Part shown: positions 15,771-15,789 of the stretch, piece after piece
Position numbering within the stretch: the first letter of the stretch is position 1
How the letters are laid out: each line of letters starts with the position of its first letter
Assembly (NCBI RefSeq): GCF_003334385.1
Contig: NZ_QOWN01000064.1
DNA from: Escherichia coli
GTDB taxonomy: Bacteria; Pseudomonadota; Gammaproteobacteria; Enterobacterales; Enterobacteriaceae
Direction: 5' to 3' (one strand)
Length of the DNA: 16,737 nt
Position numbers and translations under genes: made by a program
The notes under the pieces: model-generated
What the model was told of the DNA's origin: nothing
What the model saw: the letters and a program-made list of their open reading frames with translations, nothing else
Database searches by the model: none

Positions 15771-15789
15771 CCAGTGGTGGGCACTGGCC
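15771..15789. promoter_or_regulatory. Inverted repeat GCCAGTG-gtggg-CACTGGC upstream of the plus-strand 86-aa gene
   Basis: 7-bp perfect arms read directly, about 35 nt upstream of the ATG at 15824; candidate operator or RNA structure. Confidence 0.25.

Follow-up and report, generated by a model that had tools for sequence, protein, structure and literature searches.

Temperate phages carry extra genes that are expressed in the lysogen, such as those for exclusion, defence or virulence factors, in the form of morons, and it is usually assumed that each moron brings its own promoter and terminator. The morons of HK97 and HK022 are said to have been described by Juhala et al. in 2000, and in notes to the GenBank records, as a promoter, a gene and a terminator inserted between late genes. 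The unit considered here lies in a window of 16,737 nucleotides, the whole stretch of Escherichia coli DNA that was analysed (contig NZ_QOWN01000064.1 of assembly GCF_003334385.1). It is likewise self-contained within a late operon, has its own terminator and a promoter-like element, and would presumably be expressed in the prophage as those morons are. It differs from them in belonging to a family in which one conserved leader is common to many cargo genes and many insertion slots; to our knowledge, a leader shared over many cargo genes is not part of the moron definition.

Another described system that is close to this one is the hairpin in the 5' untranslated region of ompA, which Emory, Bouvet and Belasco reportedly characterised in 1992 as a 5'-terminal stem-loop that stabilises the mRNA. 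A base-paired 5' end protects E. coli mRNAs from 5'-end-dependent decay. The ompA hairpin and the leader are alike in placing a stable hairpin a few nucleotides from the 5' end of a monocistronic mRNA, a position that is predicted for the leader, whose stem base falls at +1 to +3 only by a predicted start at about 15763-15765. They are unlike in sequence, where no relationship was seen.

Our comparison suggests that a single conserved leader, made of a -10-like motif and a covarying RNA stem-loop, is common to many small genes that run against the late operon. Such genes are present in HK97, HK022, ES18, Stx-type phages and many other E. coli and Salmonella prophages, and the segment of the window that holds the leader and its 86-aa gene matches about a tenth of the complete E. 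coli genomes. If this is a real module of expression or regulation, it would provide a sequence handle for unannotated reverse morons, would explain the sharp mosaic boundaries in the interval between holin and endolysin, and would constitute a compact and testable RNA element.

The inverted repeat and its surroundings

A lambdoid prophage of E. coli STEC17-183 matches the window at 100% identity. The late operon runs on the minus strand in the order holin, DUF1327 ORF, endolysin, Rz, terminase, and head and tail genes. The endolysin gene R (15179-15712, minus strand) is annotated as lysozyme R or lysozyme (PhiR12_1, PGAP). Against this operon, as a 'reverse moron', runs a plus-strand ORF of 86 codons (15824-16084), which is convergent with the DUF1327 ORF and overlaps it by 53 nt. 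The latter (16032-16583, minus strand) matches Pfam DUF1327 over residues 1-100 (E 5.5e-41), continues into a coiled-coil tail and is marked as a pseudogene by PGAP; the coiled-coil segment of this 183-aa ORF is a separate gene in other phages. A strong stem-loop with 12-bp arms that are 100% complementary, followed by a run of seven T read from the sequence, lies at 16103-16137 as the intrinsic terminator of the plus-strand gene, and putative terminators are annotated at the equivalent position in HK97 and ES18. The same stem is also terminator-like on the minus strand, where it is located inside the DUF1327-fusion ORF.

The first-pass annotation of this DNA had reported an inverted repeat, GCCAGTG and CACTGGC around five nucleotides, between the divergent starts of the endolysin and 86-aa genes. 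The repeat is indeed there and is perfect, with arms at 15770-15776 and 15782-15788 and the spacer GTGGG, one base to the left of the reported 15771-15789, and the two start codons, the endolysin ATG (15712, minus strand) and that of the plus-strand gene (15824), are separated by 111 bp, not 110. Taken alone, the bare repeat is statistically not unusual: perfect 7-bp inverted repeats with loops of 3-10 nt occur 14 times in the window, against 8.6 +/- 3.3 in dinucleotide shuffles. Its significance, as judged from sequence, arises from comparison with other sequences.

With the flanking ACCC/GGGT pairs the repeat is predicted to fold at -18.4 kcal/mol, and the z-score is about -2 whichever strand is folded. 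This extended stem-loop (15765-15794), composed of an outer ACCC/GGGT helix and the inner 7-bp helix, accounts for 81% of the predicted plus-strand RNA ensemble. A second predicted plus-strand hairpin (15797-15822) pairs in part with the Shine-Dalgarno sequence GAGG (15815-15818, read from the sequence 5 nt before the ATG), and the fold of 15763-15826 reaches -25.5 kcal/mol (z = -2.7). This second hairpin is present only in the window and in copies of the e-type, and is not kept in other cargo types.

A consensus scan of the window for an intrinsic terminator at the repeat gave no T-run after the stem on either strand, the sequence continuing with CAGGGTATG on the plus strand and GGGGTGAAG on the minus strand. 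The hairpin resembles intrinsic terminators, boxB/nut elements and put-type hairpins in its short GC-rich stem, its loop of 5-6 nt and its place in a phage transcript, but has no U-tract and, by eye, no boxA or GNRA-like loop; it is further set apart from these elements by its location in the late region on the opposite strand and by having no Rfam match. Several other identities were considered and discarded: the Chi-like TGGTGG of the loop differs from Chi at two positions, no match to LexA, CRP or similar boxes was seen by eye, and inspection of the right boundary revealed no conserved core of the kind expected of an integron attC-like site or a transposon end. A CsrA-type GGA occurs in the loop of many relatives (GUGGGA) and is absent from that of the window (GUGGG).

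A leader family in front of reverse morons

A search with the hairpin led to a second context, beside a gpM-like tail gene and again before a small plus-strand gene, where the hairpin is preceded by about 60 nt that are homologous, though diverged. This copy matches phage HK97, in which the downstream gene is gene 23, located between tail genes I and J and annotated as "reverse moron product" (GenBank AF069529). A distant search detected the module in 39 phage records. In the I-J slot it also precedes gene 23 of HK022 and the "DUF2594" gene of mEp506; in the M-L slot it precedes gene 25 of ES18, and in the slot after Rz it precedes the genes downstream of Rz in HK633 and mEp213. The opposite-strand genes that follow it are annotated as moron products in HK022 (gene 23) and ES18 (gp25) and are unnamed in mEp506, HK633 and mEp213. 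Further slots are H-M and the one occupied in the window, holin-endolysin (S-R), which makes at least five slots in the late operon altogether, and more metagenomic copies are found beside other genes. Directly downstream of every copy of the module is a small gene that runs against the late operon, mostly convergent with a small minus-strand gene. In the tail and post-Rz slots, the usual partner of the reverse moron is a convergent small moron on the minus strand.

The covariance model R1 was built from nine copies (HK97, HK022, HK633, mEp506, ES18, mEp213 and three prophage copies) and finds one copy per locus. In the window it matches 15718-15815 of the plus strand over its full length (model positions 1-107) with 56.5 bits and an E-value of about 1e-10, which is weaker than the 90-120 bits of canonical copies. 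The module, for which we use the name 'reverse-moron leader', comprises a promoter-like region and a structured leader; it is about 100 nt long, occurs in many lambdoid and HK97-like phages and contains the repeat as its inner helix. In the window its left end is abutted by the start codon of the endolysin.

In the family, the module begins with a covarying minus-strand terminator in the tail and post-Rz slots, which is absent in the S-R slot. There follow a conserved CTACTGTYTRAATATCAGGSTGTT block, a variable stretch, CCCTGG, the -10-like TAnnnT, 5-6 variable nucleotides and then TCAGCC-CGYCAGTG-loop-CACTGGCG. After another 10-27 variable nucleotides comes GGGATGGCTGATTACCTC, whose GGCTGA pairs with TCAGCC, and a last variable stretch leads to the Shine-Dalgarno sequence and the ATG. 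The terminator at the left end has the form GCCACC..GGTGGC with a T-run, between the leader and the next late gene, and shows compensatory A-T to G-C changes among HK97, HK022, mEp506, ES18, HK633, mEp213 and one further locus (L131).

The upstream regions of HK97 gene 23, HK022 gene 23, ES18 gene 25 and the mEp506 'DUF2594' gene belong, by the covariance model, to the same sequence family as the window. The window and the HK97-type copies have in common TAnnnT, the spacing of 5-6 nt, the GC-rich CGYCAGTG...CACTGGCG hairpin, the Shine-Dalgarno sequence, the small anti-late gene, and a terminator that overlaps the convergent minus-strand gene. They differ in location, between holin/DUF1327 and endolysin in the window and among tail genes in the HK97 type, and the window copy has no adjacent minus-strand terminator, carries ACCC/GGGT in place of TCAGCC/GGCTGA and has largely lost the GGGATGGCTGATTACCTC block. 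Of the inner 8-bp hairpin, seven pairs form in the window, the closing pair being C.C. The canonical outer helix is missing: TCACCC stands upstream, only the remnant TCTGATAAAC is left downstream, and the local ACCC/GGGT pairing takes its place. The extended stem-loop at 15765-15794 corresponds in this way to a degenerate version of family helices 2 and 3, with the repeat (15770-15788) as helix 3. On this comparison the window copy is a degenerate member of the family, and it has the family layout of leader, small ORF (15824-16084) and terminator (16103-16137).

Rfam gave no match for the window at its gathering score, none for the leader (15718-15815) even at E <= 10 and none for the six phage loci at E <= 1; three weak Rfam matches elsewhere in 15600-16200 look like chance. 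We found no prior description of the leader in the literature, and the GenBank records of the HK97-type phages annotate only genes and putative terminators at these loci, not the leader.

Covariation and the strand of the structure

Among close S-R relatives alone, covariation is not significant. The diverged copies were included in an alignment (A8) of 52 matches, 49 of them distinct, which was fitted to the covariance model and so favours the structure. Across the 49 distinct copies, 92.5% of the cells are paired in this alignment, and helix 3 is paired in 96.4%. Both partners have changed in seven pairs; the repeat accounts for six of these, out of the eight pairs of its hairpin. All five pairing measures exceed 500 out of 500 shuffles, and slid controls pair at 20-45%. 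Some double changes are plain by eye, such as CGTCAGCG...CGCTGACG and CGCCCATG...CATGGGCG.

The G.U pairs have a strand bias. In helix 3 they occupy 24 cells when the plus strand is read and nine when the minus strand is read, and seven of these nine come from one site in S-R variants that is A.C on the plus strand. One pair passes from C-G through U.G (14 sequences) to U-A (four sequences), a path possible only in plus-strand RNA. For seven isolates, RNAalifold gave -37.7 kcal/mol on the plus strand versus -29.0 kcal/mol on the minus strand, where three stem positions break. The loop between the arms is of 5, 6 or 7 nt depending on the copy, and the halves of the outer helix, TCAGCC and GGCTGA, are either both present or both absent and lie 10-27 nt apart. 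Since compensatory changes, G.U bias, variable loop and co-occurring outer-helix halves come together, these features point to a single-stranded structure in plus-strand RNA rather than to a site for a protein on duplex DNA.

The promoter-like region

The first-pass annotation had recognised no convincing sigma-70 -35/-10 pair in the gap, in agreement with our consensus scan, which reports no site there. A conserved -10-like hexamer is nevertheless recognisable by comparison. TATGTT (15751-15756, plus strand; 4/6 consensus bases) corresponds to the TAnnnT of the family, in which T1, A2 and T6 are invariant in all 49 distinct copies and positions 3-5 vary (TAATGT, TAAGGT, TATGTT, TAACGT, TAAAGT, TATCTT). 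This motif always lies 5-6 variable nucleotides before the first helix, in the window as elsewhere. A position-weight scan places a putative weak -35-like hexamer, TTTATC (15728-15733, plus strand; 3/6 consensus), 17 bp upstream of TATGTT. The pair, with 7/12 consensus bases, is below the threshold of a standard scan; by position-weight score it is within the top 0.18% of plus-strand positions of the window, and no other plus-strand candidate in the gap, or for about 700 bp, scores better. The -35 element is poorly conserved in relatives, and the best pair in HK97 scores low.

The distance from the repeat to the Shine-Dalgarno sequence is only about 25 nt, and there is therefore no room for a promoter downstream of the repeat. 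A start 7-9 nt past the -10 hexamer, at 15763-15765, would put the 5' end of the transcript at the foot of the stem-loop. A literature search yielded no transcription start data for any member of the family.

Other arrangements were discarded. A sigma-70 promoter with its -35 in the loop scores well for A/B cargo (TTGAAT-19-TACAAT), but transcription from it would begin on the Shine-Dalgarno sequence, and nothing equivalent is present in the window. Sigma-E-like (GGCACT...TCTGA) and sigma-54-like sites were also considered by eye, but the window and its closest homologue space them 3 nt differently. The ATG inside TATGTT could extend the 86-aa ORF at its N-terminus, being in frame with it in the window, but in the e-type this extension is interrupted by a stop. 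At the conserved ATGGCTGA, a short upstream ORF would begin with a non-conserved ATG that lies only 0-1 nt from its Shine-Dalgarno sequence. In all copies the -35 and spacer are flanked by a second conserved inverted repeat, ATCAGG ...18-19 nt... CCTGG(T/A), located in the window at 15721-15726 and 15744-15749. No covariation of this repeat was seen in the family alignment, and it could be a DNA-level site or simply promoter context.

Interpretation of the repeat

Our preferred explanation, to which we give about an even chance of being correct, is that the repeat is the inner helix of a structured stem-loop in the 5' leader RNA of the 86-aa reverse-moron mRNA. That its role is specifically a stabilising one is less certain, resting as it does on analogy. 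We infer promoter activity, a start site and a stabilising or regulatory effect as follows. In the lysogen, host RNA polymerase would start from a weak constitutive sigma-70-type promoter with TATGTT as its -10, and the transcript would begin near 15763-15765. The first 30 nt or so would fold at once into the GC-rich stem-loop 15765-15794, at about -18 kcal/mol, and leave almost no unpaired 5' tail. A short monocistronic mRNA would continue through the Shine-Dalgarno sequence (15815) and the ORF to the terminator at 16103-16137, and its base-paired 5' end would guard it against 5'-end-dependent decay, by analogy with the ompA leader. In fuller members of the family the conserved GGGAUGGCUGAUUACCUC block, which contains ACCUC, may also control translation, so that the leader may regulate the moron mRNA. 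Against a leader RNA count the weak consensus match of the promoter with its poorly conserved -35, the lack of significant covariation among close S-R relatives alone, the fitting of the significant alignment to the model, and the degeneracy of the window copy. In addition, seven S-R variants have A.C at one pair that would be G.U on the minus strand, and the identity of stem and loop between copies that have otherwise diverged could reflect sequence-specific recognition.

It is also possible, though we consider it doubtful, that the repeat lies at the heart of a portable leader RNA, so far undescribed and cis-regulatory, which would act as a switch and do more than stabilise the message. Such a leader would be read by a host or phage RNA-binding factor, or would be coupled to translation through the ACCUC block, which is anti-Shine-Dalgarno-like. 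Through it, a hyperdiverse group of small prophage proteins, possibly one superfamily, would be expressed specifically in the lysogen, and the moron genes would have spread with it into late-operon slots, at least five of them, in phages of E. coli and Salmonella.

The first-pass annotation took the repeat for a possible operator or promoter of the plus-strand gene. Its placing of the repeat in the upstream control region of that gene is borne out, the same element being found before other anti-late genes, while a protein-binding DNA operator is unsupported. A dimeric repressor would have to bind the dyad and block the gene, for instance as a roadblock at about +6 to +24, which we regard as distinctly unlikely. 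The dyad symmetry is perfect over the 7-bp arms, stem and loop are identical between copies whose flanks are at about 60-65% identity, and the geometry to TAnnnT would resemble that of lacO1. Yet six of the eight pairs show compensatory changes, asymmetric G.U intermediates are common, and the spacer of 5, 6 or 7 nt would be better tolerated by a hairpin loop than by the operator of a dimer. The same dyad precedes many cargo proteins without detectable similarity in at least five slots with no linked DNA-binding regulator; the cargo proteins show no DNA-binding domains, nor does the 86-aa protein show a DNA-binding fold; no second copy occurs in the 30.8 kb of the source prophage, immunity region included; and a long-range outer helix at variable distance would be meaningless for duplex DNA. 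The left arm and loop do share an 11-nt identity, CCGCCAGTGGT (15768-15778), with lambda OL1 (TATCACCGCCAGTGGTA). The dyad centre of OL1 is another one, however, and its consensus half-site TATCAC is absent from the window repeat; the match extends only with a 2-bp insertion or deletion (14 of 17 positions would match with a 2-bp deletion), and the immunity region of the prophage differs. The 11-mer is not the family consensus, TCAGCCCGYCAGTGGTGGGA, and because this departs from OL1 the match is probably due to chance. The earlier interpretation was thus partly right about the place and probably wrong about the molecule, and the gel-shift for a repressor that it proposed would probably be the wrong experiment.

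An element of the late minus-strand mRNA also has to be weighed against the plus-strand leader, since the hairpin of the window is just as stable when folded as minus-strand RNA and is placed immediately before R, 57 nt from the endolysin start, in a region that late transcripts must cross. There it would protect or insulate the endolysin message after a long untranslated stretch antisense to the cargo. A change present in the Stx-type and in some e-type variants can form a G.U only in minus-strand RNA, but 14 of the 49 copies, isolated phages among them, have an A.C mismatch at one pair on that strand, and other copies have further such mismatches. Moreover, the same module stands before J, L, M and other genes, where it is cut off from them by the minus-strand terminator, and endolysin genes with no plus-strand gene upstream have no complete hairpin, so that this reading seems to us unlikely. 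We think it equally improbable that the repeat is a functionless relic or mosaic junction and all copies recent relatives, or, as a variant, that a recombination-prone palindrome might mark the point of cargo exchange. Such a junction would fit the exact breaks of homology at 15788 and, in the H-19B type with its left arm encoding the C-terminus of DUF1327, at 15765; it would also fit the lack of significant covariation among close S-R relatives and the ordinary frequency of 7-bp repeats. Against it stand the covariation among more diverged copies, the retention of the element over at least five slots, in phages of both E. coli and Salmonella, despite diverging flanks, and the invariant TAnnnT at fixed spacing. 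Very improbable in our view is a leader attenuator or terminator, or a part of a minus-strand antisense small RNA ending at the adjacent terminator of the tail slots. The former could be seen in the 4-5 T after the hairpin of d-type cargo (GTTTTAT or GTTTTTC), although the window and most types have no T-run there. The latter might be read from the covarying minus-strand terminator directly after the module in tail slots, although the S-R slot has none, so that the RNA would read into the endolysin gene; a search for a conserved minus-strand promoter for such an RNA found none, and the G.U bias favours the plus strand.

The holin-endolysin interval as a cargo slot

The segment 15713-16140 of the window matches 580 of 5426 complete E. 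coli genomes, and many of these matches end exactly at 15788, the 3' end of the hairpin. In searches of phages and E. coli genomes, homology upstream of the endolysin stops exactly at 15788 in phages with other cargo, and at 15765 in H-19B-type phages, which have no plus-strand gene. The holin-endolysin interval is between 468 and 1665 bp long in 110 IMG/VR loci that were anchored on the 21-mer proximal to the endolysin. Small plus-strand genes of at least eight families, without detectable similarity to one another, are found in it, and most of these genes have the same hairpin in front. The slot is hypervariable, with DUF1327, sometimes a second, coiled-coil minus-strand gene, and the small plus-strand genes, whose families are of unknown function (PHROGs 2572, 2411, 18136, 1853, 25324, 21218 and others).

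A family of 90 aa has other hairpins in the same place, GCCTG-TTGAAT-CAGGC or CAGCCTG-TTGCCT-CAGGCTG, which align with the outer helix of the main family. Intervals with no plus-strand gene (the 487-bp type, the L077 type, K-12 Qin and Sakai Sp5) have no complete hairpin. The H-19B type retains only the left arm, which forms the last codons of DUF1327, and the -10-like motif, and looks like the product of a deletion between GGYGG microhomologies.

In the d-type, with a cargo of 104 aa (five loci), the 4-5 T follow the hairpin directly; hairpin and T run could there form a terminator-like structure inside the leader, an attenuator, and the window has no such run. In the Stx2a phage LC567818 (about 2721-3353, plus strand) and in LC567819, an unannotated ORF of 210 aa (MLIYPAADLRL...) comes after the same hairpin. 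This ORF is found in Stx1a and Stx2a phages, whose records annotate an overlapping minus-strand hypothetical protein instead, and it has no PHROG, NCBIfam or PADLOC family match.

The cargo proteins

The 86-aa protein matches PHROG 2572 (E 3.6e-50), a PHROG of unknown function, and is labelled by PGAP as hypothetical protein WP_001625288.1. It has no significant match in Pfam, NCBIfam, PADLOC or PDB. Its predicted structure, of modest confidence, consists of three helices and has no significant fold match and no DNA-binding match. A comparison of the gene with a homologue gave a dN/dS of about 0.39.

Shallow profiles detected no homology among the cargo proteins. A local iterative profile, in turn, joins three cargo families with the 'DUF2594' protein of mEp506 (E 4e-6), and the 86-aa family of the window is its next match, at a borderline E of 0.007. 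The reverse-moron proteins may on this basis constitute one fast-evolving superfamily. Several of them, from five loci including mEp506 and from the window, have in common a helix-LP/D-acidic motif.
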